Below, one piece after another: positions 873 to 37,817 of a DNA stretch of 37,817 nucleotides (the first letter of the stretch is position 1; every line of letters begins with the position of its first letter). This DNA is from a virus, in the IMG/VR virus record IMGVR_UViG_3300048577_000138, positions 1 through 37,817 of that record; one strand, given 5' to 3'. The notes under the pieces were generated by a model. That model worked only from the letters and a program-made list of their open reading frames with translations, was not told the DNA's origin and searched no databases. A program made the position numbers and the translations under genes.

Positions 873-2644
873 GCCTTGTCTTCCCATGCATAGGTTCCGT
901 TGGCGCCGTGGATGCTGATCGGCAATCCTTGGGCGCGGAGTTGTTCTAATGATACTGCGCCGCCGTCCGCAAGGGCCTTGGCATCATCCCACGCTTTGAA
1001 CATGTCCGACACGTAGCCGCGGGCGATGTCGCGATTGTTTTGCGCTGCCCATTCTCGGAAATCTGCCTGCGCGCCCTGCGGTCGCTGGCTGCGCCACCAG
1101 AACACCAGGTCACGCTTGGGGGCGGACCGAACGTCGAACGGGGGTTCGGGGAGGGGGGGTGTAGGGGTGTTCTCTCCCTGCCGTTCGGTGGCGTTCGGTG
1201 GCGTTCGGTCGTTCGCTCCCTCTGGTGAGGGGCGTTCGGTGGGCGCGGGCAGCAGCCGAACGTGACCGAACGGGGGGAGGCGCTGCAGGAGTTGCGGCAG
1301 GTGGGTGTCGCAATTCCAGGATTGATAGGCGACGCGGCGGTGCATGAATGCGCCGACGGCGGGCAGAGTGTCGGCTTCATACTCCTTGAGCAGCGATGCC
1401 TGCGAGGTGTCGAGCTGGTAAGCCAGGCGCAGTTTGCAGCCGCCGCGCACGATGGCGGGCAGTTTCTCTGGGGCCTGGTCCAACACGACGAAGTGGAACC
1501 CCGTCATGCGCGCCAGCCGGAACATCATTTCGAGCTTGTGATCGACGGCGGCCAGCTTGACGGCGCCGGCCTTCGACGCGGCGATCTCCTCGCGGATGGC
1601 GCCGAATTCCTCAAGCACCACCACGATCTCCGGGCCGGCGGACGCAGGCATCATGCGCCACTCGCCTACGCCGCGCTCTTGCATGAGGCGATGGCGGGCG
1701 GCGTGGACGGCGTAGAGGGCGGCCATCTGATCGCCAAAAATGTAGGCGTCGGTGGGCTGCCATTCGACGTGGCTGGCGAAGGGGCCAAAATCGACGCCGG
1801 CTTTGGGGTCCAGGCAGACGACGTGGTAGCCGTGGCGGGCGGCCAGGAGCATGGTTTGGTAGCCGGTGGATTTTGTTTTGCCCGTGCCGGACACGCCGAA
1901 CACTCCCAGGTTGAGATGCTCTCTTGGCTGCCAGATTGCCAGTTTGCCAGCGTCTGGGTTGTGGCCGAGTACGAATTGATCCGGGTTGGACTGGCGCAGG
2001 GCGTCGCCAAGTTGCAGCGGTTCATCTGGCACCGGTGTCGCCGGCGGTTCGCTGCCGATGACGAGCGGGGCGGGCAGGGCGGGGCGGGTGGGGCGTTCGA
2101 GCATGGGCTTGGCGCTGCCTCCCAGCCCGCCGGTCCGGTAGGTGCTGCCGTTGCTGGTGATGATGGCATCGTCGCCGGGGGTTTTGGCCTGCCACTCGGC
2201 GACTTTGGCGCGGGCGGCGGCGTGGCTGGCGTAGAGTGCGGGGTCGTAGCTGCCCAGCTCGCGCACGCCGCGGCTGCCGATGGCGAGCGCCGGCGCCATC
2301 ATCAGATCGGGATTGACGAGGATTTCGACTTGTTCGCCTGTCGCAGCGTCGCGCACTTTGTAGGTGCGCAGGCGGTGCGATCCGTCGCGCTGCTGGTTGT
2401 AGTTGTGCCAGGCTTTGGCGGCGAAGCGGCCTACCCAGACCAGGCCGGCGCCGGCGGCCAACGCCAGCACGAGGCGCGCGCAGAGGAAGGCCAGGTCGAT
2501 GGCCTGGCGGGTGTACTCGCCAGCGGCGCCGGTGATTGCCGGCATGGAATCCCACGCGCTGATCATCAGGATCGTGATGATCAGCGCGGCGGGTGTGAGG
2601 ACGATCAACAGCAACAGGGAGATCAATTTGTCCAGCGTCTTCAT
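869..2644 (-). CDS. Membrane-anchored FtsK/HerA-superfamily P-loop ATPase (TraB/TcpA-like architecture)
   Basis: 591 aa. Two N-terminal hydrophobic helices (LISLLLLIVLTPAALIITILMISAW; LAFLCARLVLALAAGAGLVWVG). Walker A GVFGVSGTGKTKST and Walker B-like EIVVVLEEFG. A P/T-rich linker precedes a helical C-terminal domain. Confidence 0.75.
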   Translation of the reverse strand: MKTLDKLISLLLLIVLTPAALIITILMISAWDSMPAITGAAGEYTRQAIDLAFLCARLVLALAAGAGLVWVGRFAAKAWHNYNQQRDGSHRLRTYKVRDAATGEQVEILVNPDLMMAPALAIGSRGVRELGSYDPALYASHAAARAKVAEWQAKTPGDDAIITSNGSTYRTGGLGGSAKPMLERPTRPALPAPLVIGSEPPATPVPDEPLQLGDALRQSNPDQFVLGHNPDAGKLAIWQPREHLNLGVFGVSGTGKTKSTGYQTMLLAARHGYHVVCLDPKAGVDFGPFASHVEWQPTDAYIFGDQMAALYAVHAARHRLMQERGVGEWRMMPASAGPEIVVVLEEFGAIREEIAASKAGAVKLAAVDHKLEMMFRLARMTGFHFVVLDQAPEKLPAIVRGGCKLRLAYQLDTSQASLLKEYEADTLPAVGAFMHRRVAYQSWNCDTHLPQLLQRLPPFGHVRLLPAPTERPSPEGANDRTPPNATERQGENTPTPPLPEPPFDVRSAPKRDLVFWWRSQRPQGAQADFREWAAQNNRDIARGYVSDMFKAWDDAKALADGGAVSLEQLRAQGLPISIHGANGTYAWEDKA

Positions 2645-7376: not shown

Positions 7377-8291
7377 ATGCACGCCATTGATTCTGCTATC
7401 CGCACGTTTCTGGCGATTAAGCGAGCGGAACGCCGTTCGCCGGTGACGGTGCGTAGTTATGAGCAGTTGCTCGGTCTGTTTCGGGCCTCTTTGCCGCCGG
7501 AGGTGATGGCGGTGGAGGAGATTACGACGGAGCAGTGTGCGGCGTTCCTGGCCGCCGAGGAGGGGCGCAAGCTGAATGCGCCGGGGTCGCCAGATCGACA
7601 CATGAAGGCGACTTCACTCGCTGCCCGTTACCGGGCGATGCGGGTTTTTTTGCGTTGGTCTAGCGAGACGTACAAGTTTGCTAATCCGCTGGTGTTCAAG
7701 GCGCCGAAGATCGACATTGAGCCGCCGCGCCGGGCATCCAACGAGGATGTTGAGGCGCTGCTGGCGTCGATTGACGGTGACGGCTGGCTGGATTTTCGCG
7801 ACCGGGCGATTGTGCGGCTGCTGCACGGGACAGGGCTGCGGGTGCAGGAGTGTGCGAGCCTGGCGCTCAATGATCTGGACGTGGCGAAGCGCCTGGTCTA
7901 TGTGGCGGACGGGAAGGGCGGGAAGGCGCGCTATGTGCCGTTTACGCCGGGGGTGGCGATGCACCTGCTGGCGTACCTGCTGAACCGTCCAGCGTGGTCG
8001 GGTCGTGAGTTGCTGCTGGGGTCGGTGAATCGCCACGGGGTTCCGCATGGGCCGCTGACGGCGAATGGCATCCGGCAGATGCTGAAGCGGAGGTGCAGGG
8101 CGGCCGGGATTGCGTACATCAATCCGCATAGCCTGCGCCATCTGTTTGCGACGAAGGCGCTGAATGATGGCATCCCGCTGAGTGCTGTGTCTACGATGAT
8201 GGGGCACGCATCGACGGATTTCACGGCCCGTGTCTATGCCAAGTGGCTGACGGATGGGCTGGTGGCGATCTACGATGCGCACTGGAAGTAA
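7377..8291 (+). CDS. int: Tyrosine recombinase / phage integrase (XerC/D-like)
   Basis: 304 aa with a SAM-like N-terminal domain. Catalytic-region motifs: LLHGTGLRVQE, HSLRHLFAT, GHASTDFTARVY. GGAGG RBS. Confidence 0.93.
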   Translation: MHAIDSAIRTFLAIKRAERRSPVTVRSYEQLLGLFRASLPPEVMAVEEITTEQCAAFLAAEEGRKLNAPGSPDRHMKATSLAARYRAMRVFLRWSSETYKFANPLVFKAPKIDIEPPRRASNEDVEALLASIDGDGWLDFRDRAIVRLLHGTGLRVQECASLALNDLDVAKRLVYVADGKGGKARYVPFTPGVAMHLLAYLLNRPAWSGRELLLGSVNRHGVPHGPLTANGIRQMLKRRCRAAGIAYINPHSLRHLFATKALNDGIPLSAVSTMMGHASTDFTARVYAKWLTDGLVAIYDAHWK

Positions 8292-9862: not shown

Positions 9863-10132
9863 GTGTCCGAAAAATACAGGACTATTGACCCTTACAATTT
9901 GGGCATTTGGCTGGCACAAATATGCGCAATCTGTGCTATAATTGGCGTAGTGACCGCCACATTTGATGCCCTGATCAATAAGATTCAACGGGACTTGGAG
10001 TCGCTGGTGGCCAGCGGCAACAACTGGCAGCTTACTGTGCATGGCGGGCGCGGCGGCAATATCAAGGTCGAAAAGTTGATTGTGGATGAGCTGACGCTGG
10101 AGCTCAGAGAGCCCAAGTCTCGTACCCGTTAG
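9863..10132 (+). CDS. Hypothetical small membrane protein (89 aa) in a low-GC moron
   Basis: Track ORF with one hydrophobic helix (LGIWLAQICAICAIIGVVTA). Local GC is lower, and its own terminator follows. Confidence 0.5.
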   Translation: MSEKYRTIDPYNLGIWLAQICAICAIIGVVTATFDALINKIQRDLESLVASGNNWQLTVHGGRGGNIKVEKLIVDELTLELREPKSRTR

Positions 10133-10170
10133 GCGTCGGCAAAATCAATACTCGCGGTTGGCTCGTGATA

Positions 10171-10210
10171 GGGCGCCGCTCGGAGATTCCGGGCGGCGCC
10201 TTCGTTTTTT
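10171..10210 (+). terminator. Rho-independent terminator
   Basis: Stem GGCGCCGC (10172-10179) / GCGGCGCC (10193-10200), followed by TTCGTTTTTT. Confidence 0.65.
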
Positions 10211-12243: not shown

Positions 12244-12467
12244 GCAGCCGCAGGGCGCAGCGCAGGCGGGCGTGCCAGGGTAAGCGCCGGCTGCCGGACG
12301 CTGATGTGGCGTGGCGGGTGGCCAGGCTGATGACGCAACGGCATGGGGAGTTGTTGCTGGCGTATCGGTGCACGTGGTGCGGGTGCTGGCATGTGGGGCA
12401 TCCGTCACGTAGGCAGGCGCAGAGTTATATGGCGAGGAGGGCGAATCGTGCCGCAGAGGCCAGTTAG
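12240..12467 (+). CDS. Small Cys-rich (Zn-ribbon-like) protein (75 aa)
   Basis: In the frame of track ORF 11886..12467 from GTG 12240. Contains ACQGKRRLP ... YRCTWCGCWHVGH. Confidence 0.4.
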   Translation: MSSRRAQRRRACQGKRRLPDADVAWRVARLMTQRHGELLLAYRCTWCGCWHVGHPSRRQAQSYMARRANRAAEAS

Positions 12468-12795
12468 TGCGTGCCGGAGGCCTGGATGTGCGGGCGTGGT
12501 GCGGGATGGCGTGTGCAGTTTGTGTGGGCCGCTGCGCAGGGCTGGGCAGGTTGCGCACGACGAGCGGCGCGGGACGGCTGCGCAGCGTGGCTACGGCGGG
12601 CGCTGGCAGCGGGTGCGGCTGATGTTCCTTCGGTCGCATCCATTGTGCGCGGACTGCGCGAGCCGCAACCAGGTCACGCCGGCCACGGACGTGCACCACG
12701 TGGTGGCCAGGCGGGACGGCGGCGGCGACGAGGAGGGCAACCTGCTGGCGCTGTGCCACTCGTGTCATAGCAAGCGCACCCAGGCCGGCGAGTAG
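12448..12795 (+). CDS. HNH endonuclease (terminase-associated)
   Basis: CRRPGC...CSLC and HPLCADC...DVHHVV...NLLALCHSCHSKRT. GTG at 12448 with a GAGGAGG RBS. It lies directly upstream of terS, as in HK97-like cos phages. Confidence 0.85.
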   Translation: MPQRPVSACRRPGCAGVVRDGVCSLCGPLRRAGQVAHDERRGTAAQRGYGGRWQRVRLMFLRSHPLCADCASRNQVTPATDVHHVVARRDGGGDEEGNLLALCHSCHSKRTQAGE

Positions 12796-12896
12796 GCTGG
12801 GGGTAGGGGGGCGCGGATCTCTGGGGCCTGATAGCCCAGACCACTTGGCCCCACGAATTTTCACACCCGCGAGTTTTGATAGGGGGGGTATAGAGC

Positions 12897-13406
12897 GTGG
12901 GACGGCGGGGACCGGCGCCAAAGCCGACGGCGATCAAGCGATCATCGGGGAATCCGGGGAAGCGGGCGCTGAACGGGGCGGAACCGCAGTTCAGCCGCCA
13001 GGCGCCGCCTTGCCCGAAGCACCTGGCGGGGGAGGCGCGCAAGGAGTGGCGGCGCATTGTGCGGGAGTTGGTGCAGACGCCGGGGCTGCTGCAGGTGGTG
13101 GACCGGGCGGCGCTGGCGGCGTACTGCCAGGCGTGGGCGCGCTGGGTGGAGGCAGAGCAGAAGATGCAGGCGCCCGACTTCACCATGATCGAGGTGACGG
13201 ACAAAGGGTATGCTCACGTGAATCCGTGGTTCCAGGTGAGCACGCAGGCGCAGAAGCAGATGAAGGCGTTTCTGACGGAGTTCGGGTTGACGCCGGCGAG
13301 CAGGGCGCGGATTCAGGTCGCGGAGCGGGGCGAAGAGGATGAGTTCGACGAGTTTGTCAGGGCCAAGCCAGGGGCCAAGCCCGGCGGCAGGCCCGGCAAC
13401 GAGTGA
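12897..13406 (+). CDS. terS: Terminase small subunit, P27 family
   Basis: MGRRGPAPKPTAIKRSSGNPGKRALN...CPKHLAGEARKEWRRIVREL...DRAALAAYCQAW matches the P27-family pattern. Confidence 0.9.
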   Translation: MGRRGPAPKPTAIKRSSGNPGKRALNGAEPQFSRQAPPCPKHLAGEARKEWRRIVRELVQTPGLLQVVDRAALAAYCQAWARWVEAEQKMQAPDFTMIEVTDKGYAHVNPWFQVSTQAQKQMKAFLTEFGLTPASRARIQVAERGEEDEFDEFVRAKPGAKPGGRPGNE

Positions 13407-13467
13407 CGATGACCTGATCGCTGCGGTTGGCGTGCTGCCGGGCTGGGCACAGGAGAGCCCAGCCGAG

Positions 13468-15132
13468 ATGTACATTACCAACGTAATTACTGGCAAACAG
13501 TTGGCGTGCAAGTGGGTGCGGCTGGCGTGCGAGCGGCATCGCCGTGACCTGCTGCATGGGCCGGAGCGGGGGCTGTGGTTTGACCCGGAGGCTGGCCAGC
13601 ACATCATTGATTTTGCCCGGTTCTGCCGGCATGTAAAGGGGCGTTGGGCGAACCAGGTTGTGGTGCTGGAGCCGTGGCAGCAGGCGCTGCTCTGGATTCT
13701 GTTCGGATGGATGCGGGCGGATGGGGCGCGGCGGTTTCGGTCCTCCTATTGGGAGATGGCGCGCAAGAACGGGAAGTCCCTGGTGGGGGCGATCATCGGG
13801 CTGTATGGGCTGGTGGCGGATGGGGAGGGGGGCGCGGAGATCTACGCGGCGGCGACGAAGCGGGAGCAGGCGAAGGAGGTGTTTACGCCGGCCTGGCTGA
13901 TGGCGAAGAAGTCTCCGGCGCTGAAGAAGCGGCTGACGTGTTACCGGGACAATATTCACATCAAAAATACGGCGTCGAAGTTCGAGCCGGTGGGGCGAGA
14001 TTCGGATACGGCGGATGGGTCGAATCCGCACATTGCGCTGGTGGATGAGCTACACGCTCACCGCGATGATGGAATGTGGGGTGTGCTAGAGACAGGGATG
14101 CGCAGCCGCTGGCAGCCGCTGATGTTTGGGATCACGACGGCGGGTTTCAACCAGGCGTCATGGTGCTATGAGCTGCGCCGGTATGCGACGCAGGTGCTGG
14201 ACGGGATTGTCGTCGATGACGCGTTTTTTGCGATCATTTTTACGCTGGACCGCGAGGATATTGAGCGGCCTGACGGCTGGATGGATGAGACGCTGTGGAT
14301 TAAGTCGAATCCGAACCTCGGGGTTTCGATTGATCTGGAGGGGTTGCGGGCGGCGGCTGTGCGGGCCAAGGCGATGCCGAGCGCCAAGGGCCAGTTCCTC
14401 ACCAAGAGCCTGTCGGTGTGGACCAATGCCGGTGTACAGTGGATTCCGGCGGAGCGGTGGTCGCAGTGTTCGGGGGAGGTGGACGAGGCGGCGCTGGCGG
14501 GGCGGCCCTGCTATGGAGGGCTGGATCTGTCGAGTACGTTCGACCTGACGGCGCTGGCGTGGGTGTTTCCTCCGTATGGTGACGATCCGCTGTACCGGGT
14601 GGTGATGAGGTTCTGGGCGCCGGAGGCGGCGATTGCGGAGCGGATGCGCCAGCAGCGGGCGAGTTATGCGACGTGGCAGGCGCAGGGGTTTATTGAGATG
14701 ATCCCTGGCGAGGTGATCGACTATGAGTATATCTACCGGCAGATCGAGCAGGATGCGACACAATTTGATGTGAAGCGGGTGGCGTTTGACCGCTGGGGGG
14801 CAAGCCAAATATATGTGCGACTGACGGCGGCTGGGATCGAGATGGTGCAGTTTGGCCAGGGGTTTGCCAGTATGTCGTCTCCGATGAAGGAGTTGGAAAA
14901 GTTGATCCGGGCGCGGGGGCTGGCGCATGGGGGGCACCCGGTGCTGGCGTGGAATATGCACAATCTGATTGCGACGAAGGATCCGGCGGGGAATATCAAG
15001 CCGGATAAGAAGCTGTCGGTGGAGAAAATCGACGGCGGCGTGGCGCTGATCATGGGGCTGGCGGGGGCGACGCTGCATGATGCGGAGGCGGCTAAATCGG
15101 TCTATGACGAAAGGGGGGTGAGGGTGTTATGA
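13468..15132 (+). CDS. terL: Terminase large subunit
   Basis: 554 aa from ATG 13468 (AGGAGA RBS; the track ORF starts at 13339). Contains a Walker-A-like MARKNGKS and ALVDELHAH, and shows the typical Terminase_1 layout. Confidence 0.9.
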   Translation: MYITNVITGKQLACKWVRLACERHRRDLLHGPERGLWFDPEAGQHIIDFARFCRHVKGRWANQVVVLEPWQQALLWILFGWMRADGARRFRSSYWEMARKNGKSLVGAIIGLYGLVADGEGGAEIYAAATKREQAKEVFTPAWLMAKKSPALKKRLTCYRDNIHIKNTASKFEPVGRDSDTADGSNPHIALVDELHAHRDDGMWGVLETGMRSRWQPLMFGITTAGFNQASWCYELRRYATQVLDGIVVDDAFFAIIFTLDREDIERPDGWMDETLWIKSNPNLGVSIDLEGLRAAAVRAKAMPSAKGQFLTKSLSVWTNAGVQWIPAERWSQCSGEVDEAALAGRPCYGGLDLSSTFDLTALAWVFPPYGDDPLYRVVMRFWAPEAAIAERMRQQRASYATWQAQGFIEMIPGEVIDYEYIYRQIEQDATQFDVKRVAFDRWGASQIYVRLTAAGIEMVQFGQGFASMSSPMKELEKLIRARGLAHGGHPVLAWNMHNLIATKDPAGNIKPDKKLSVEKIDGGVALIMGLAGATLHDAEAAKSVYDERGVRVL

Positions 15133-15566
15133 GTGGGTTTCCGCGGGTGCATGTGTCGGCGGCGGTGAATCATCTGGTGCGTGGGGTGGATCTGTTTGTG
15201 TTTGTGCCGCATGTGGAGGATGGGACGTTTTCGGTGGTGGTGGGGCCGGTGGCGTTTGAGCGGGCGGCTGTGGATGCGTCGCCGCCTCCGCTGTTTTCGC
15301 TGAGGATGGAGGAGGCGCAGCGGCTGATGGATGACCTGTGGCACGCGGGTTTGCGGCCTACGCAGGCGGTGGCGGGAGATGCGGTGCTGGCGGCGAAGGA
15401 TGCGCATATTGCGGACCTGCAGCGGCTGGTGTTCGGCTCCGGGGAGGGCGCAGGCGAGGGTGCGGGCAATGGGCTGATCGGGGCGCTGACGCAGGCGGCG
15501 CTGGCGGTTGTGCTGCCGGTGATCACGCTGGCTGAGGATGGGACGGATGAGCGGGATGAGGGCTGA
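15129..15566 (+). CDS. Hypothetical protein (145 aa)
   Basis: Track ORF with an ATGA overlap with terL. Confidence 0.5.
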   Translation: MSGFPRVHVSAAVNHLVRGVDLFVFVPHVEDGTFSVVVGPVAFERAAVDASPPPLFSLRMEEAQRLMDDLWHAGLRPTQAVAGDAVLAAKDAHIADLQRLVFGSGEGAGEGAGNGLIGALTQAALAVVLPVITLAEDGTDERDEG

Positions 15567-15717
15567 CTGGACGGACCTGGCGCTGCTGGTGGGGGTGCTG
15601 CTGATCGGCTATTGGGTGGCGGCGGACTATGGGCTGGCGGCGCTGGGGGCGTTTGTGGGGGCGCTGCTGGTGGTGGTGGCGAGTGCGGTGGCTTACCAGA
15701 GAGGCAGGGGCGATTGA
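15547..15717 (+). CDS. Small two-helix membrane protein (56 aa)
   Basis: Hand-translated: MSGMRADWTDLALLVGVLLIGYWVAADYGLAALGAFVGALLVVVASAVAYQRGRGD. Below the track cutoff. Confidence 0.4.
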   Translation: MSGMRADWTDLALLVGVLLIGYWVAADYGLAALGAFVGALLVVVASAVAYQRGRGD

Positions 15718-15941
15718 TGGCGGATGAGGCTGGGGGCGAGTTGCTGCCGGTGGTGGGCGAGTTGGCGGTGATCCGGCATGGGGATCTGCGGCCGGGGGAT
15801 GTGCTGGTGCTGTCGTGTCTCGGTGGGTTGCCGGATGCCCACTATCGCCGTTTGCAGGCGGCGTGCGCTGAGCTGGGAATCACGGCGATGATCCTGGAGG
15901 GTGGCCTGGAGATTGAGGCGATCCTGCACAAGGGGGAGTGA
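15717..15941 (+). CDS. Hypothetical protein (74 aa)
   Basis: ATG at 15717 inside track ORF 15612..15941, overlapping the upstream stop (TGATG). Confidence 0.5.
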   Translation: MADEAGGELLPVVGELAVIRHGDLRPGDVLVLSCLGGLPDAHYRRLQAACAELGITAMILEGGLEIEAILHKGE

Positions 15942-15942
15942 T

Positions 15943-16248
15943 ATGTTGGCGGATGCGTGGCGGCAGCAGGCGATCAATGCTGTACGGGAGGCGGAGGAGG
16001 GCGATCCGCGAATGCTGGACAGGCTGGCGCTGCTGCTGGAGCAACAGGATGAGACGGTGCGGGCGCTGCGAGAGTTGGGTGAGGGCTGGACGCTGGAGAG
16101 GCTGCTGGATTGGCTACGGGAGCAGCCGTCGATTAAGCGAGTTGTTGCGGAGAGCCTGGCGTCGGTAGTCGAAGATGCGCTCGATGATGCGGTGAGATCG
16201 GGGATTGCGGTGGCTGTGCGAGACGGCCTTGGTGTGAGGTTGGACTGA
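15943..16248 (+). CDS. Hypothetical helical protein (101 aa)
   Basis: ATG at 15943 inside track ORF 15901..16248, with a GGGGGAG RBS. Confidence 0.55.
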   Translation: MLADAWRQQAINAVREAEEGDPRMLDRLALLLEQQDETVRALRELGEGWTLERLLDWLREQPSIKRVVAESLASVVEDALDDAVRSGIAVAVRDGLGVRLD

Positions 16249-16292
16249 GGGGTTGACGGCGGTCGCGGCCTGGTGACGGCGACGGGGGAGTG

Positions 16293-16499
16293 ATGGCGGT
16301 GGAGCTGCGCGCGCTGGGGAAATTTTGGGGGGAGCTGTCGGACGATGGGCGTTACCTGGAGCTGCGCCGGCATGACTGCCGGGTGGCGCGGGTGGACCTG
16401 GTGGAGTCGGCGCGCGCGGGGCGGACGGTGCTGGTGCGGGTGCGCAGTGAGGGGGAGGAGGGCGCGGGCGTTTCCCGGGAAACGGGGGGCGCGGTGTGA
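16293..16499 (+). CDS. Hypothetical protein (68 aa)
   Basis: Track ORF 16290..16499. Its 3' end contains palindrome copy 1. Confidence 0.45.
   Translation: MAVELRALGKFWGELSDDGRYLELRRHDCRVARVDLVESARAGRTVLVRVRSEGEEGAGVSRETGGAV
16469..16484. promoter_or_regulatory. 16-nt perfect palindrome CGTTTCCCGGGAAACG, copy 1 of 3
   Basis: Read directly. The shared flanks give GGCG(K)TTTCCCGGGAAACGG. Confidence 0.5.
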
Positions 16500-16506
16500 G
16501 CCGCTG

Positions 16507-16604
16507 CCAATAGCAGGTAGAGCCAGGAACTTGTGTCCTTCTGTGACCGCACAACGGCGGAGTAGAACCGCCAAAAGGTTTCCACCCGGAAGTGCCTGCT
16601 ATTG
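16507..16604 (+). ncRNA. Candidate structured RNA (10-bp closing helix with three internal hairpins)
   Basis: CAATAGCAGG (16508-16517) pairs perfectly with CCTGCTATTG (16595-16604). Internal hairpins are AGGA..TCCT, GGCGG-AGTAGAA-CCGCC and TTCC..GGAA. No ORF here and no family recognised. Confidence 0.3.
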
Positions 16605-16635
16605 ACGAGAGTATTGTAGCTCGGTCCAGCCCGCC

Positions 16636-16686
16636 GGCCTGCTATAGAGGTCGGAGATCACAGGTTCAAATCCTGTCCCTGCTGCA
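16636..16686 (+). other. tRNA-like fragment (anticodon-arm-like hairpin, canonical T-arm, acceptor 3' strand) that does not fold as a full tRNA
   Basis: GGCCT-GCTATAG-AGGTC hairpin, then T-arm ACAGG-TTCAAAT-CCTGT (16660-16676), then CCCTGCT-G-CAA. No convincing D-arm or 5' acceptor strand. Confidence 0.3.
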
Positions 16687-16767
16687 ATAAACCTTTACAA
16701 GGTTTTAGCGACACCTGCATTAGTGGTGTGACTGCCGGAAGAGTCCGGCGCTCATCTGGTCAGGGGG

Positions 16768-16796
16768 TTGAATGCGCAGACCGGATGTGCTATATT
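16768..16796 (+). promoter_or_regulatory. Near-consensus sigma70-type promoter TTGAAT-N17-(TGc)TATATT
   Basis: -35 at 16768-16773, 17-nt spacer, extended -10 TGCTATATT ending at 16796. It sits in a non-coding island 135 nt upstream of the portal ATG. Confidence 0.55.
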
Positions 16797-16864
16797 GGGT
16801 GTAGCGAGATCTACAACTAGAGCGCAGGGCGAGCGGCGACCATTCAGTCGCATCTCGCCAGATT

Positions 16865-16920
16865 GACGCCAGATAGCTTGTCACGTTCAAAGGTGACGGC
16901 TGTCTGGCGTCTTTTTATTT
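16865..16920 (+). terminator. Strong intrinsic terminator 11 nt upstream of the portal start codon
   Basis: GACGCCAGA (16865-16873) pairs with TCTGGCGTC (16903-16911). Inner helices are AGC/GCT and GTCAC/GTGAC. TTTTTATTT follows. Confidence 0.6.
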
Positions 16921-16930
16921 CCGGTGTGCG

Positions 16931-18631
16931 ATGGGCTTTCTTTCCAGCTTGTTCCAAACGAAGAGTGTAGAGGAGAGGGCGGCTGCGCAGCGCCAGCACC
17001 CATCGGCGGATATTGATTGGGCTGAGTTCCTGGGGGCGGCCAGCCGCACGGCGGGGCTGCCGACGCCTTCGGTGGAGTCGGCGATGACGATGCCGGCGGT
17101 GTACGCGTGTGTGCGCGTGCTGGCGGAGACGGTGGCGAGCCTGCCGCTGATTACGTACCGGACGCGGCCGGATGGTGGCCGGGAGCGGGCGGGCGACCTG
17201 CCGCTGGCGCGGCTGCTGGCGCGGCGGCCCAATCCGGAGATGACTGCGTTTGAGCTGGAGGAGCTGCTGACCAGCCAGTGCGCACAGTGGGGCAACGCGT
17301 ACGCGTTTCTGGATCTCAATCAGCGCGGGCAGGTGACGGCGCTGTGGCCGATGCGACCGGACCGCACGCAGCCCCAGCGGCGCAATGGCGAGCTGCAGTA
17401 TCGCTACCGAATGGACGACGGGCAAGAGGTTGTGATCCCGGCGTGGCAGGTGCACCACCGCAAGGGGCTGTCGGGAGACGGGATTGTCGGCTATTCGCCG
17501 CTGCGCGTGGCGATGCTGGCGGTGTCGCTGGGGATGGCGACTGAGGAGTTCGGCGCCCGCTTTTTCTCGAACGGGGCGCGGCCGGGGATGGTGCTGGAGC
17601 ACCCGGGGAAACTGAGCGATCAGGCGTTCGAGCGGCTGCGGGTGAGTTGGCGGGATGATCACCAGGGGTTGAGCAATGCGCATAAGATCCGCATCCTGGA
17701 GGAGGGGATGAAGATCGAGACGCTGGGGATTCCGCCGGAAGAGGCGCAGTTTTTGCAGACGCGCACGTTCCAGGCGCAGGAGATTGCGCGCATCTACCGG
17801 ATGCCTCCGCACAAGATCGGCCTGCTGGACAACGCCACATTCAGCAATATCGAGCACCAAGCGATTGAGTTCGTGACGGACACGATCCGTCCCTGGCTGC
17901 GCCGGTTTGAGCAGGCGCAGGCGCGCGACCTGCTGACCGAAAGCGAGCGGCAGACGATCTACACGGAATATCTGGTCGAGGGGCTGCTGCGCGGGGATAC
18001 GGTGAGCCGCTACCAGTCGTATGCGGTGGGCCGCCAGTGGGGATGGCTGGCGGTGAATGATATTCGCCGGCTGGAGAATATGGAGCCTATCGCCGACGGC
18101 GACGTCTATCTGCAGCCGCTGAACATGGTGGAGGCCGGGACGCCGGCCGCCAACGGCGCGCCAGATGCCGCCGGCCAGACGCGCAGCCCGGGCAGTGGGG
18201 CCGGGGCTGCGGCCTGGCTGCGGCCGGTGGTTGAGGATGCGGCGAGGCGGCTGGCGCGGCGCGAGGCTGCGGACCTGCGCAAGGATGGTGCGAAGGCGCT
18301 GCGATCTCAGCCGGAGGCGTTTGGTGGCTGGCTGCAGGAGTTTTACGGAGGGGTGGGCGAGGCCGGCTGCCAGATGCTGCAGCCGGTGGCGACGGCGGTG
18401 GCCCAGGCGGCGGGACGCAGCGAGGATGCGCTACGCAGCGCGGTGAGTGCAGCGGTTTTTGAGTCGGCGTGGCGCAGCCTGCAGCAGGCGCGCATGGTGA
18501 CGAGTGAGGCGCAGGGCGCTGGCATGACGCCGGTGGCGGCGCTGGAGCAGTATGCGGCGATGATCGAGGCGGCCGGGCCGCAGGTGCTGGCTGATGCGGT
18601 GCTGGCGGCGTTGGCTGAGGTGGCGAGGTGA
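16931..18631 (+). CDS. Portal protein, HK97 family
   Basis: 566 aa. MGFLSSLF... N-terminus, MPAVYACVRVLAETVASLPL, and a layout typical of HK97-type portals, with an Ala-rich C-terminal extension. Confidence 0.92.
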   Translation: MGFLSSLFQTKSVEERAAAQRQHPSADIDWAEFLGAASRTAGLPTPSVESAMTMPAVYACVRVLAETVASLPLITYRTRPDGGRERAGDLPLARLLARRPNPEMTAFELEELLTSQCAQWGNAYAFLDLNQRGQVTALWPMRPDRTQPQRRNGELQYRYRMDDGQEVVIPAWQVHHRKGLSGDGIVGYSPLRVAMLAVSLGMATEEFGARFFSNGARPGMVLEHPGKLSDQAFERLRVSWRDDHQGLSNAHKIRILEEGMKIETLGIPPEEAQFLQTRTFQAQEIARIYRMPPHKIGLLDNATFSNIEHQAIEFVTDTIRPWLRRFEQAQARDLLTESERQTIYTEYLVEGLLRGDTVSRYQSYAVGRQWGWLAVNDIRRLENMEPIADGDVYLQPLNMVEAGTPAANGAPDAAGQTRSPGSGAGAAAWLRPVVEDAARRLARREAADLRKDGAKALRSQPEAFGGWLQEFYGGVGEAGCQMLQPVATAVAQAAGRSEDALRSAVSAAVFESAWRSLQQARMVTSEAQGAGMTPVAALEQYAAMIEAAGPQVLADAVLAALAEVAR

Positions 18632-19278
18632 CTATGAGCGGGCTAGAGCGGCGCATTGTGCCGGCGCGTGAGATGCGGGTGGTGGAGCAGGGGGACGGCA
18701 AGCCGCGGTTGATCGTGGGCTATGCGGCTGTGTTCGACTCGCTGAGCGTGGAGCTGTGGGGGTTCCGTGAGCGTGTCGCGAGGGGGGCGTTTGCGGACAG
18801 CCTGGCGGCCGGCGACGACGTGCGGGCGTTGTGGAACCACGATCCGAACATTGTGCTGGGGCGGACGCGGAGTGGGACGCTGCGGCTGAGCGAAGACGAG
18901 ACGGGGCTGTATGTGGAGATTGAGCCGCCGGACACGCAGCAGGCCAACGACCTGGTGGCGGTGATCGCCCGCGGGGATGTGGACCAGATGTCGTTTTCGT
19001 TCCGGGTGATCGAAGACAAATGGAGCATCGACGAAAGCGAGCAGTATGTGCGCACGCTGCTGCAGGTGAAACTCTACGACGTGGCGCCGGCGACGTTCCC
19101 GGCCTACCCGGACACGTCGCTGGGGGTGCGCTCGGCGGGGCCGCATCCATTCTATGGGGAGATTCCGGTGATTCCGGCCGCGGCGCAGCGGGCGCTGCCT
19201 GCGGCTGCTGCGGAGGCCGAGGCGCGGGCGCGCCTCGCTGCGCTGCGGCGCCGGTTGGAGATGGCAGAAACTGAGTAG
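18628..19278 (+). CDS. Prohead (maturation) protease, HK97 family (S78/U35)
   Basis: GYAAVFDSLS...RGAFADSL...LWNHDPNIVLGRTRSGTLRLSEDETGLYVEI...ARGDVDQMSFSF. Confidence 0.9.
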   Translation: MTMSGLERRIVPAREMRVVEQGDGKPRLIVGYAAVFDSLSVELWGFRERVARGAFADSLAAGDDVRALWNHDPNIVLGRTRSGTLRLSEDETGLYVEIEPPDTQQANDLVAVIARGDVDQMSFSFRVIEDKWSIDESEQYVRTLLQVKLYDVAPATFPAYPDTSLGVRSAGPHPFYGEIPVIPAAAQRALPAAAAEAEARARLAALRRRLEMAETE

Positions 19279-37515: not shown

Positions 37516-37817
37516 TTACTCCTTTGCGCTGGCGATGACTGCGGGCAGTTCAAGTTGTTTGCACCAACGATCTAGGATCGGCTGCGTCCAGGTGTCTGCG
37601 TCTACGTAGTACGCTTGGAAGCGGCGCACGTCCATGCCTTCGACACGCAGGAAGGCGCCCTGGCCGGGGAGGTATTCGGCGCCTACGCCTGAGATTCCGG
37701 CGGCGACGCGGCTGTCGTCGGGGGACATAACGCGGCCGATCAGGCGGCTAGTGAAGTTGGCTTTGGCGACGCTGCCGACGATGGCGCCAAGCGGTTTTTG
37801 CGTGGCAGCCAGGACGT
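37516..37817 (-). CDS. FtsK/SpoIIIE-family ATPase, 3' part (same gene as 1..872; nt 37691-37817 duplicate nt 1-127)
   Basis: The frame is continuous with 1..872 across the junction. The C-terminus reads ...SRLIGRVMSPDDSRVAAGISGVGAEYLPGQGAFLRVEG..., a typical FtsK motor-domain end. The track only shows it as a 70-aa ORF, 37516..37728. Confidence 0.8.
   Translation of the reverse strand, partial: VLAATQKPLGAIVGSVAKANFTSRLIGRVMSPDDSRVAAGISGVGAEYLPGQGAFLRVEGMDVRRFQAYYVDADTWTQPILDRWCKQLELPAVIASAKE
37691..37817. repeat. Terminal overlap, copy 2 (identical to 1..127)
   Basis: Base-for-base identity with the window start. Confidence 0.95.

Follow-up and report, generated by a model that had tools for sequence, protein, structure and literature searches.

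The stretch of DNA analysed here, hereafter the window, comprises positions 1 to 37,817 of the record IMGVR_UViG_3300048577_000138 (37,817 nt), and coordinates count from its first letter. The HNH, terS and terL genes (12343-15132, with HNH and terS at 12343-13342) lie on the same strand as, and upstream of, the RNA unit described below, and are followed by five small ORFs (15129-16499), a non-coding island (16500-16930) and an HK97-type portal gene on the plus strand (16931-18631; PHROG 12 portal, E = 6.5e-120). A first-pass annotation of this DNA had placed the island directly after terL, which is not the case because terL ends at 15132 and the five small ORFs intervene. Its description of the island as free of ORFs is confirmed, as we found no credible ORF but solely short overlapping ones (≤56 aa), with no in-frame conservation among the relatives. 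The GC content of the island (0.51-0.59) departs from that of its flanks (0.64-0.78). The portal ATG at 16931 indeed has no SD, and it follows the U-tract of the island by 10 nt rather than the 11 nt reported earlier; the portal start codon and first codons are kept in relatives. Among approximately 70 portal relatives, about three quarters lack the island, with the portal ATG overlapping the preceding stop codon. Its presence is therefore polymorphic between otherwise syntenic relatives, and it is found in a minority of them. BLAST searches of the island and of the terL-portal region against 50,697 phage records retrieved no island-bearing relative, only matches of at most 30 nt to tRNA T-arms.

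A sigma-70-type promoter with an extended -10 element (TTGAAT, 17 nt, TG-n-TATATT) is located, as first proposed, at 16768-16796 on the plus strand and is the sole promoter-like match between 15000 and 19000; a second copy of the motif occurs at 9932, in the early region. Promoter and terminator were scored by E. coli-type consensus rules, which may not be those of the host. Judging from the -10 element and the terminator, the transcript would extend from 16803 to 16920 on the plus strand, giving a predicted sRNA of ~118 nt (MFE -60.7 kcal/mol, z -7.1) that scores 77.4 bits (E about 1e-17) with our covariance model R1. Near its 5' end lies an invariant single-stranded box, box B (ACAACUAGAGCGC, 16813-16825), a candidate recognition or seed element, followed by a predicted middle hairpin (GGCGAG..GCGAC-loop-GUCGC..CUCGCC, 16828-16859). 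The larger hairpin proposed before, closed by 7 bp between 16804-16810 and 16852-16858, could form, but the MFE fold does not contain it and the relatives do not retain it; what is conserved instead is the local hairpin at 16828-16859. The intrinsic terminator (16865-16920) consists of a 13-bp lower stem and a 5-bp upper stem followed by UUUUUAUUU; its hairpin (16865-16911) is very stable, as noted from the start, and together with TTTTTATTT (16912-16920) reaches -34.9 kcal/mol (z -7.4). Rfam 15 at the gathering threshold assigned no family in the window and returned only tRNA matches in E-value mode, and the same searches on four relatives, in both modes, gave tRNA matches only.

Judged by sequence and predicted fold, the promoter-to-terminator unit (about 16803-16920) belongs to an undescribed RNA family outside Rfam, of which R1 recovers 17 modules in 16 loci (36-80 bits). 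The copies end in a shared tail composed of the single-stranded box AACUAGAGCGC and the terminator GACGCCAGAUAG...CURUCUGGCGUC. The 11-nt AACTAGAGCGC of box B is identical in 15 of the 17 modules, even though many of the corresponding portal proteins are merely 54-63% identical, and it is predicted to be unpaired with a mean probability of 0.63, compared with 0.34 for the RNAs as a whole (16 members); box B would thus offer the conserved accessible seed by which Hfq/ProQ-type sRNAs are recognised. A hairpin occupies the position of the middle hairpin in 11/17 modules, with unrelated sequences. The terminator helix covaries across 14 sequences, with 99.5% of cells paired and compensatory changes at 6 of its 13 pairs, a result reached by none of 500 shuffles, and the upper stem and the adjacent hairpin have diverged freely, also with compensatory changes. 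Even the diverged copies (L054, L217 and unit 1 of L245) retain GAGCGC and keep the helix by such changes. Pair 10 is U-G in nine of the 14 sequences and the T-run lies on one side only, both of which fit an RNA of the plus strand alone. The sequence of the lower stem is more conserved than structure alone requires; instead of a function as an sRNA, the cause could be a recent horizontal spread or the binding of a protein. The conservation and covariation among homologous phages that had been suggested as a check on the island are thus present, in that the unit recurs in 16 loci, its terminator helix covaries and the box is invariant in most copies.

The members differ in what lies between promoter and tail. 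A TGTGCTAnnnT (TGnTAnnnT-type) promoter motif precedes all of them except L054, which has TTGACA-17-TAGGAT, and 12 to 240 nt separate the promoter from box and terminator, a span filled by varying cargo that includes a tRNA. Three interchangeable 5' heads were found on the tail: a "G5" hairpin with an invariant UCGGGGGA bulge, a structured domain of ~165 nt with two covarying stems and invariant loops, and an intact tRNA-Met. The window copy is the minimal, head-less form. Behind a near-identical promoter (91% identity over 57 nt), L215 carries the ~165-nt domain exactly where the window has none; promoter and tail of the two are 86-91% identical, against 60% for the portal. The unit lies directly before portal and on the same strand in 13 of the 16 loci, is separated from it by small ORFs in L048 and L217, and occurs twice in tandem in L245. 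In L162, a phage with an SPP1-type head module and no similarity to the terL or portal of the window, it precedes a small ORF and a scaffold gene. The RNA unit is therefore mobile, since one of its copies resides in an unrelated head module. L162 was the one new member among the 88 loci recovered by scanning viral sequences for box B plus GACGCC, nearly all of which were chance matches in coding sequence; L142 and L165 were rejected as members, since their box overlaps a gene end and their terminator differs. A metagenome scan for the terminator palindrome gave three chance palindromes, all unrelated, and the scanned collection evidently holds no contigs bearing the family. The four matches to the S-domain motif were likewise all due to chance.

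Upstream of this unit, the island contains a decayed tRNA gene (16610-16684, plus strand), whose T-arm and 3' acceptor strand are intact, decay having affected the 5' half and the anticodon arm. The canonical T-arm that had drawn attention to this piece is real (ACAGG-TTCAAAT-CCTGT, 16660-16676; a 5-bp stem and a GTTCAAAT-type loop), and the piece as a whole is sub-threshold for both Rfam and ARAGORN. It matches the Rfam tRNA family (RF00005) with 23.9 bits (E 0.019), below the gathering score of 29, and ARAGORN reports no genes in the island at the default and 95% thresholds, calling the piece only at 80%; its tmRNA mode, relaxed settings included, gave no match in the island. Two acceptor pairs are non-standard, the D-arm is non-canonical and the fold z-score is -1.64. 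The T-arm aligns with those of the tRNA-Met genes of L212, L218 and L119, and the 3' half together with the spacer aligns with the intact tRNA-Met(CAT) of L212 and L218. The tRNAs at the RNA locus of L119 and L212 (58.9 and 62.7 bits) are intact, initiator-like tRNA-Met(CAT). Going by these scores and alignments, the piece is best called a pseudogene homologous to tRNA-Met. It is followed by block A (16708-16750, plus strand), two small hairpins (ACACC/GGUGU and GCCGG-AAGAGU-CCGGC) that form the 3' trailer of tRNA-Met in relatives. Block A is kept in L039, L045, L212 and L218, and in its second hairpin a U-G pair is replaced by C-G between L039 and the window. The tRNA-like piece and block A are, as read from these comparisons, the relics of a tRNA-Met and its trailer that are intact in L212 and L218. 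In relation to phage-encoded tRNA genes, the locus of the relatives thus contains an intact tRNA-Met(CAT), whereas the window copy no longer qualifies as a tRNA. The purine-rich loop of the second hairpin recalls a nut-like boxA/boxB arrangement, an idea that was dropped as block A lies upstream of the window's promoter.

The 5' end of the island is occupied by a 98-nt branched hairpin with a closing helix of 10-12 bp (16505-16607, plus strand). The perfect 10-bp closure reported for this element stands, CAATAGCAGG at 16508-16517 being fully complementary to CCTGCTATTG at 16595-16604, and the element folds at -37.9 kcal/mol (z -3.28), a value equalled by 0 of 200 shuffles. The element is specific to the window, with no homologue in any related locus or in the phage database; a scan with its inner hairpin gave 20 matches in unrelated DNA, none akin to the element. 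No promoter was found 5' of it. A 12-nt direct repeat, GCCTGCTAT(T/A)GA, at 16594-16605 and 16637-16648 contains the first two CCTGCT copies, a third copy lies at 16678-16683 and an inverted one at 16510-16517. CCTGCTAT occurs four times in the whole window, with three copies inside the island, against 0.49 expected. The copies at 16595, 16638 and 16678 are present as first described; the alternative pairings attributed to them have no comparative support, because the repeats are window-specific and absent from all relatives.

The last of the small ORFs, orf69 (16290-16499, plus strand), flanks the island. Its homologues precede the RNA locus in L039, L045, L211, L212, L213, L215 and L216, and another is found in the unrelated SPP1-type L162 (49% identity over 45 aa, E 2e-8). 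The family is rare, with nine clusters in 5.8 billion proteins. We found no Pfam, PHROG or PDB match for orf69, the best hit of the PDB profile search having an E-value of 0.088. Its AF2 model (pLDDT 64) is a four-stranded beta meander, with no Foldseek match below E 0.5.

Taken together, the island is probably, although well short of certainly, a non-coding "moron", that is, an autonomous and horizontally mobile small-RNA gene in the head-gene region. Like a moron, it has the sequence motifs of its own promoter and intrinsic terminator, a deviant GC content and a horizontal spread (L215, L162). It contains no protein-coding cargo, and its indels and compensatory changes fit a constraint at the RNA level. 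The stand-alone phage sRNA gene that the first-pass annotation offered as its second reading is thereby supported by the 16 loci, the covarying terminator helix, the mostly invariant accessible box and the maintained structure of the middle hairpin. On this small-RNA reading, host RNA polymerase would start near 16803 from the extended -10 promoter (16768-16796) and would stop at the intrinsic terminator (16865-16920), giving an RNA of ~118 nt with, in order, a short 5' single strand bearing box ACAACUAGAGCGC, a variable hairpin, the conserved terminator hairpin and a U tail. The sequences upstream would be the wreckage of an older and larger version of the locus (16610-16750) and the window-specific hairpin (16505-16607). 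The RNA may act in trans, with the accessible box B base-pairing to an mRNA or some other RNA or serving as a protein-binding site, and its hairpins would provide stability and possibly chaperone binding. The timing of its expression would be that of a promoter that looks constitutive, from which the terminator would insulate the head genes. Portal expression would then hinge on late transcription reading through that terminator, as any polymerase that transcribes portal presumably has to cross this strong terminator, which ends 10 nt before the ATG; to this extent the first-pass idea of a late switch stays valid. Should the function reside in the heads, the head-less window copy could be a non-functional remnant.

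The unlikely possibility that the unit is functionless cargo, its tail acting as an efficient terminator or insulator, the U-rich 3' side as a landing site for portal translation, and the whole spread by recent recombination, draws on several of these observations. Promoter and tail are near-identical between the window and L215 despite a portal identity of 60%, which indicates recent exchange, the window copy is head-less and its tRNA dead, and a search for box-B targets in the phage genome found none above chance (best duplex -24.0 kcal/mol; shuffled seeds -25.8 to -17.9). Nevertheless, box B is the most invariant segment despite lying outside the terminator, while the neighbouring hairpin and the upper terminator stem have diverged freely with compensatory changes, so that there was enough time for drift, and the diverged L054, L217 and L245 unit 1 still keep GAGCGC and the helix. 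Control of the late operon in cis would give the promoter a different role, as a late promoter for portal and the head genes with the RNA as a by-product, an antiterminator (Q-like or an RNA element) allowing passage of the terminator. The terminator does end 10 nt before the SD-less portal ATG with no promoter in between, the unit does lie directly before portal on the same strand in 13/16 loci, and there is the precedent of lambda-type phages, including the StxS sRNA made from the short pR'-tR' transcript, where a by-product RNA can itself be a regulator (PMC7547250). However, we regard such control as rather improbable. The terS and terL genes lie upstream and, in about three quarters of the relatives, translational coupling extends from them to portal, so the late operon needs no promoter at the island; the five small ORFs (15129-16499) have no PHROG match to a Q-like or other regulator, in a search by which only known families are recognisable; and the spacing of 12-240 nt between promoter and box, the tRNA cargo, the tandem units of L245, the small ORFs before portal in L048 and L217, the position before a small ORF and a scaffold gene in L162 and the use of the same promoter type in the early region at 9932 all speak against it. 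The specific lambda pR'/6S/tR' switch with a Q-type antiterminator, suggested in the first-pass annotation, is likewise not supported, given the upstream terS/terL, the lack of a detectable Q-like protein among the flanking small ORFs, the variable spacing and cargo and the SPP1-type context. The window unit resembles 6S and StxS in that a constitutive-looking promoter and, behind it, a short terminated RNA precede the late genes; in contrast to them, it has no recognisable Q gene or Q-binding architecture, has terS/terL upstream rather than standing at the head of the late operon, and belongs to a family of variable spacing and cargo that also occurs in a non-homologous head module. A lambda-type switch has one terminator and a promoter-proximal pause or loading site at a fixed position, a layout from which this family departs by that spacing and by the tandem units of L245.

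We consider it most improbable that the locus works as DNA, with the palindrome GACGCCAGATAG/CTATCTGGCGTC as a protein-binding, packaging (cos/pac) or recombination site, or with the tRNA fragment as an attachment site. The lower stem of the terminator is nearly invariant in sequence and three unrelated contigs begin 75-200 nt upstream of portal, which would suit such a site, and tRNA 3' fragments are typical att cores. Yet the T-G at pair 10 in 9/14 members would not pair in DNA, nor on the other strand, the T-run is one-sided, and the L218 and L219 contigs that start just upstream of portal have no palindrome. An attP core was dropped because the integrase (7377-8291) is 8 kb distant, and a cos site because cos usually neighbours HNH and terS in HK97-like phages, genes that occupy 12343-13342 in the window, and because the window assembles into a circle that has no end at the island. 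A partnership with orf69, whose product would bind the RNA at box B or the conserved stem, the pair forming a regulator, a toxin-antitoxin-like system or an anti-defence system, is improbable in our estimation. In most members a homologue of orf69 closely precedes the RNA locus, and one was carried along into L162, and the protein family is as rare as the RNA. On the other side, further genes separate orf69 from the RNA in L045, L215, L244 and L245, L209 has the RNA with no tblastn match to orf69 and with the called genes upstream of portal on the opposite strand, and orf69 has no recognisable RNA-binding fold or family. Moreover, the linkage may be mere synteny, because orf69 is one of a cluster of small genes shared across the clade.

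Returning to the small-RNA moron, its closest parallels are the morons of HK97- and lambda-like phages (Juhala et al., 2000, as cited in PMC4104026; review PMC3594210), with which it shares a sigma-70 promoter and a factor-independent terminator of its own, deviant composition, horizontal spread and a site within the late structural operon, where it interrupts genes that are neighbours in relatives. Morons carry a protein-coding gene, whereas the cargo of this unit is RNA, namely the sRNA and, in relatives, a tRNA or structured domains. Among sRNAs, the anti-sRNAs AsxR and AgvB of EHEC prophages are found at a moron site and differ at their 5' ends, while their 3' region, terminator included, is highly conserved (PMC4104026). 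The family described here would likewise be one of short phage sRNAs at a conserved moron site with this 3'/5' pattern. There is no sequence relation, the window unit lies before portal and AsxR/AgvB downstream of pR', and the window family has an invariant box beside the terminator and large structured 5' modules. The tRNA-bearing relatives suggest a further comparison. Spacers and trailers of tRNA operons yield sRNAs, e.g., 3'ETS-leuZ of E. coli. Similarly, the transcription unit of L119, L212 and L218 places the tail or block A immediately behind tRNA-Met, so that it would be set free as a trailer RNA when the tRNA is processed; in the window, by contrast, a promoter of its own serves the tail, and the tRNA is dead.

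It is also possible, although we advance this only tentatively and think it less than likely, that these loci form a modular phage RNA system, in which box B and the terminator make up a 3' tail that all copies share, that is joined to swappable 5' heads and that moves with orf69 between unrelated head modules. If so, the heads would represent new classes of functional RNA that might, for instance, act as decoys of host or defence proteins or sense a ligand or a protein, all of them using the tail as a handle for one and the same partner, and the window copy would be a stripped-down form.

To our knowledge, phage regulatory RNAs come almost solely from a few model prophages, and the locus would add an RNA-only moron at a hot spot just before portal in uncultured HK97-like phages. 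Its 17 copies make the family testable, through the invariant 11-nt box, the covarying terminator and at least two more undescribed motifs (G5 and the S domain). They also illustrate how such a locus evolves: heads are exchanged, a tRNA decays, a promoter is inserted and the unit passes from one head module to another, unrelated one. For annotation, the small-RNA reading would account for a strong terminator 10 nt before an essential gene, and it cautions that a promoter and terminator before late genes are not always a Q-type switch. An SRP-like motif in the S domain was dropped as it has no Rfam support, and a CRISPR-repeat mimic was discarded because the likeness to a type I-F repeat stem is confined to the hairpin of one member, L039. 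The position directly before portal in 13 of the 16 loci would suit a cis role as well. The nearest named relatives of these uncultured HK97-like phages are found in Caldilineaceae, Nitrospira and Competibacter-type MAGs.

The HK97-type portal gene of this phage (16931-18631), followed by the protease and then the major capsid protein genes, is preceded by a stretch without credible ORF at 16500-16930. The first-pass annotation had placed this island before portal and directly after terL; the former holds, whereas terL (13339-15132) is separated from the island by a block of five small ORFs (15129-16499). All the sequence features listed in that annotation were found in the island, whose GC content is 0.51-0.59, versus 0.64-0.78 in both flanks. 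The first 126 bases of the window are exactly repeated at 37692-37817, showing a complete genome of ~37.69 kb that was circularly assembled (or is terminally redundant), and since a tyrosine integrase is encoded at 7377-8291, the phage is probably temperate.

In 15000-19000, the sole promoter-like site is TTGAAT-17-(TG)n-TATATT at 16768-16796, and the terminator hairpin at 16865-16911, followed by UUUUUAUUU, folds at -34.9 kcal/mol (z -7.4), both being called with E. coli-type rules that may not be those of the host. The terminator ends 10 nt before the portal ATG, which lacks an SD, and because no promoter fits between them, portal and the head genes would have to be transcribed through the island terminator. 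The 7-bp helix proposed earlier (16804-16810/16852-16858) is not retained: it is specific to the window and competes with a conserved local hairpin (16828-16859), which is the MFE fold. The sequence CGCCAGAU occurs twice, 11 nt apart, at the end of this middle hairpin (16856-16863) and at the start of the terminator (16867-16874), so the terminator 3' arm has two possible registers; the duplication is retained in the related loci L215 and L209 and imperfect in L211.

No close sequenced phage was found in the INPHARED set. Relatives were collected by searching the portal protein against viral contigs, genomes and a large protein collection and fetching the encoding contigs, giving about 120 related loci (L-numbers). 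In about three quarters of these, the portal ATG and the stop codon of the ORF before it share 1-4 nt, leaving no island, and a non-coding insert before portal is found in a minority. All inserts share a 3' segment, the tail, composed of a box (U)ACAACUAGAGCGC (box B), an optional hairpin and a terminator GACGCCAGAUAG...CURUCUGGCGUC followed by U's. A covariance model of this tail (R1), built on six copies, matches 17 copies at 36-80 bits, distributed over 16 distinct loci: the window, L045, L209, L211, L215, L245 (two copies), L039, L244, L212, L216, L213, L048, L217, L054, L119 and L162. Their portal proteins range from 94% to 48% identity to that of the window, and the nearest named portal relatives are from Caldilineaceae, Nitrospira and Competibacter MAGs (44-61% identity). 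L049 has a related box, AACUAUAGAG, and a different terminator.

Several observations indicate that the tail acts at the RNA level. The 13-bp lower helix of the terminator is 99.5% paired across 14 sequences and six of its pairs are changed on both sides, a covariation reached by none of 500 column shuffles and lost in all slid controls, although the family is small and includes close kin, so that these counts are not independent events. Compensatory changes comprise A-U to G-C in L054 (GACGCCGGA/UCCGGCGUC), G-C to U-A in L217, and CCAGAUAG to CCUGAUAG jointly with CUAUCAGG in the second L245 copy. In addition, the U-G at pair 10 in nine of the 14 sequences pairs only in the + strand RNA, and the T-run is confined to the same side. 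Box B (AACUAGAGCGC) is identical in 15 of the 17 copies; the hairpin that separates it from the terminator occurs in 11 of 17, with sequences unrelated to one another. In predicted full-length RNAs the mean unpaired probability of box B is 0.63, versus 0.34 overall, and the 16 members tested all show this excess. Extended -10 promoters of the form TGnTAnnnT lie 12-240 nt upstream in all members except L054, in which TTGACA-17-TAGGAT is found instead.

Upstream of this tail, the relatives carry interchangeable 5' heads. The G5 element, located downstream of the first promoter, is closed by a stem of 10-13 bp and contains an inner hairpin and, on its 3' side, an invariant bulge UCGGGGGA. It is present in L244 (5449-5505), L039 (2799-2856), L213 (3846-3906), L216 (541-600), L245 (1629-1695), L045 (5497-5556), L119, L211, L212 and L215, as a variant in L162, and is absent from the window. 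The alignment of the ten full sequences of this previously undescribed structured RNA displays compensatory changes in 13 of 17 predicted pairs. The S domain, ~165 nt long, separates the promoter from box B in L215 (2724-2890), L045 (5715-5870), L209 (3526-3700), L211 (3586-3720) and L245 (1850-2025). The stems of its two hairpins covary completely (e.g., CUGGG/CCCAG, GUCGAG/CUCGAC and CCAGG/CCUGG), the loops are invariant (about UAACCGNNCAA and UGACGCAGCCAAGA), and CUUCCCAGGCUACAGCCGCC is also conserved. A third head is an intact, initiator-like tRNA-Met(CAT), found in L119 (3250-3322, minus strand), L212 (946-1017) and L218 (1-55), those of L119 and L212 scoring 58.9 and 62.7 bits; its initiator-like traits are a weak 1:72 pair, the GCGGGGUGGAGCAGC start in L212 and, in L119, three G-C pairs adjoining the anticodon loop. 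Two small hairpins, GCGACACCUGC..GUGGUGUGACAGCCGGAGAGACGGC (block A), follow the tRNA in L212 and L218, with a different hairpin there in L119; L039 and L045 likewise have block A. The order in L212 is promoter, G5, tRNA-Met, block A, box B and terminator. The tRNA-Met genes would be transcribed together with the ncRNA modules. L245 carries two complete units in tandem, and in L218 and L219 tRNA-Met and block A are combined with another terminator (AGCCAACCUGA..UCAGGUUGGCU). Rfam searches with the G5, S domain, block A and tail modules of the relatives retrieved no match.

In the window, the promoter and first transcribed bases are 91% identical to those of L215 over 57 nt (..GGTCAGGGGGTTGAATGCGCAGACCGGATGTGCTATATTGGGTGTAGCGAGAT), and the S domain is missing at exactly its position in L215. 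Since CTACAACTAGAGCGC comes next in its place, the window unit is a minimal, head-less form, which could reflect either a deletion or an ancestral short form, the latter also displayed by L054.

As a whole, the island reads 98-nt hairpin, tRNA-like piece, block A (16708-16750), promoter, box B, hairpin and terminator, that is, the L212 order with the promoter placed between block A and box B. The T-arm ACAGG-TTCAAAT-CCTGT noted earlier is indeed present, while ARAGORN detected no tRNA in the island and Rfam gave no match at the gathering threshold; in E-value mode, its only match was a tRNA at 16610-16684, whose 23.9 bits fall short of the gathering score of 29. With L212 and L218 the window shares an alignable stretch that runs from the T-arm through block A (75.6% over 82 nt); the 5' half and anticodon arm of the tRNA-like piece could not be aligned. 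Therefore, the tRNA-like piece is best read as a decayed tRNA-Met gene and block A as its former trailer. The perfect 10-bp helix (16508-16517/16595-16604) was likewise recovered, in a 103-nt segment folding at -37.9 kcal/mol (z -3.28), as were the CCTGCT copies at 16595, 16638 and 16678; of the four occurrences of CCTGCTAT in the 37.8-kb window (0.49 expected), three fall in the island. The 98-nt hairpin and these repeats, without counterpart in the related loci or the phage database, stand where relatives carry the first promoter and G5, and they may, tentatively, be products of the rearrangement that destroyed the tRNA.

Two readings had been proposed for the unit: a late switch resembling lambda pR'/tR' with a Q-type antiterminator, or a stand-alone sRNA gene. 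The predicted read-through into portal notwithstanding, the switch model is not supported, as several of its defining features are missing: the five small ORFs gave no match to a known regulator family, HNH, terS and terL lie upstream of the promoter on the same strand, and both the promoter-to-tail distance and the cargo vary among members. We favor an sRNA gene of ~118 nt with predicted ends, belonging to the family of 17 copies in 16 loci. Having its own promoter and terminator, presence/absence in syntenic relatives, deviant composition and horizontal spread, this unit would qualify as a moron in which the protein cargo is replaced by RNA. The closest described case is that of the anti-sRNAs at the moron site of EHEC lambdoid prophages, which have conserved 3' regions and variable 5' ends (PMC4104026), a layout common to both. 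The accessible, invariant box B would be the working surface of the sRNA, either pairing with RNA or binding protein; no above-chance complementary site was found within the phage's own genome.

The mobility of the unit is visible from L215, which shares 86-91% of promoter and tail with the window, versus 60% for portal and 44% for terL. L162, from the same metagenome as L045, encodes an SPP1-type portal together with Mu-F-like and scaffold proteins and shows no similarity to the window head genes. Nevertheless, promoter, hairpin, box B and terminator are all found there (79.8 bits), behind a homologue of orf69, the small ORF flanking the island (16290-16499 in the window; 1172-1447, minus strand, in L162). 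The association of orf69 with the RNA locus extends even to this unrelated SPP1-type phage. The orf69 family of small proteins is very rare, with 9 clusters among 5.8 billion proteins, and has an invariant core ELRALG..WG.LS.DGRYL and a predicted 4-strand beta meander; family, profile and predicted-structure searches gave no functional clue. Immediately ahead of portal lies a hot spot for insertions, occupied by an N6/N4 DNA methyltransferase in L245 (546-1580), a group of genes on the opposite strand in L209 (229-3315), small, partly membrane-like ORFs separating terminator from portal in L048 (5829-5996) and L217 (2780-3004), small membrane-like ORFs in L046, and extra ORFs in L045 and L215. 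Three independent assemblies (L218 1-200, L219 1-75 and the contig of P0019) start 75-200 nt upstream of a related portal, L218 inside tRNA-Met, which looks like breakage at a module common to co-occurring phages.

The same promoter type with the initially transcribed TGGCGTAGTGA recurs at 9932, in the regulatory region. Within 9930-10202, the promoter TGTGCTATAAT precedes TGGCGTAGTGA, an arrangement shared with the island, L215 and L209, and abuts the GTG at 9950 of a leaderless-looking 60-aa ORF (9950-10132), itself followed by a 15-bp terminator (10170-10202). This unit looks like a protein-coding moron or an immunity-region gene, and the copy at 9932 fits a host-polymerase promoter independent of late factors.
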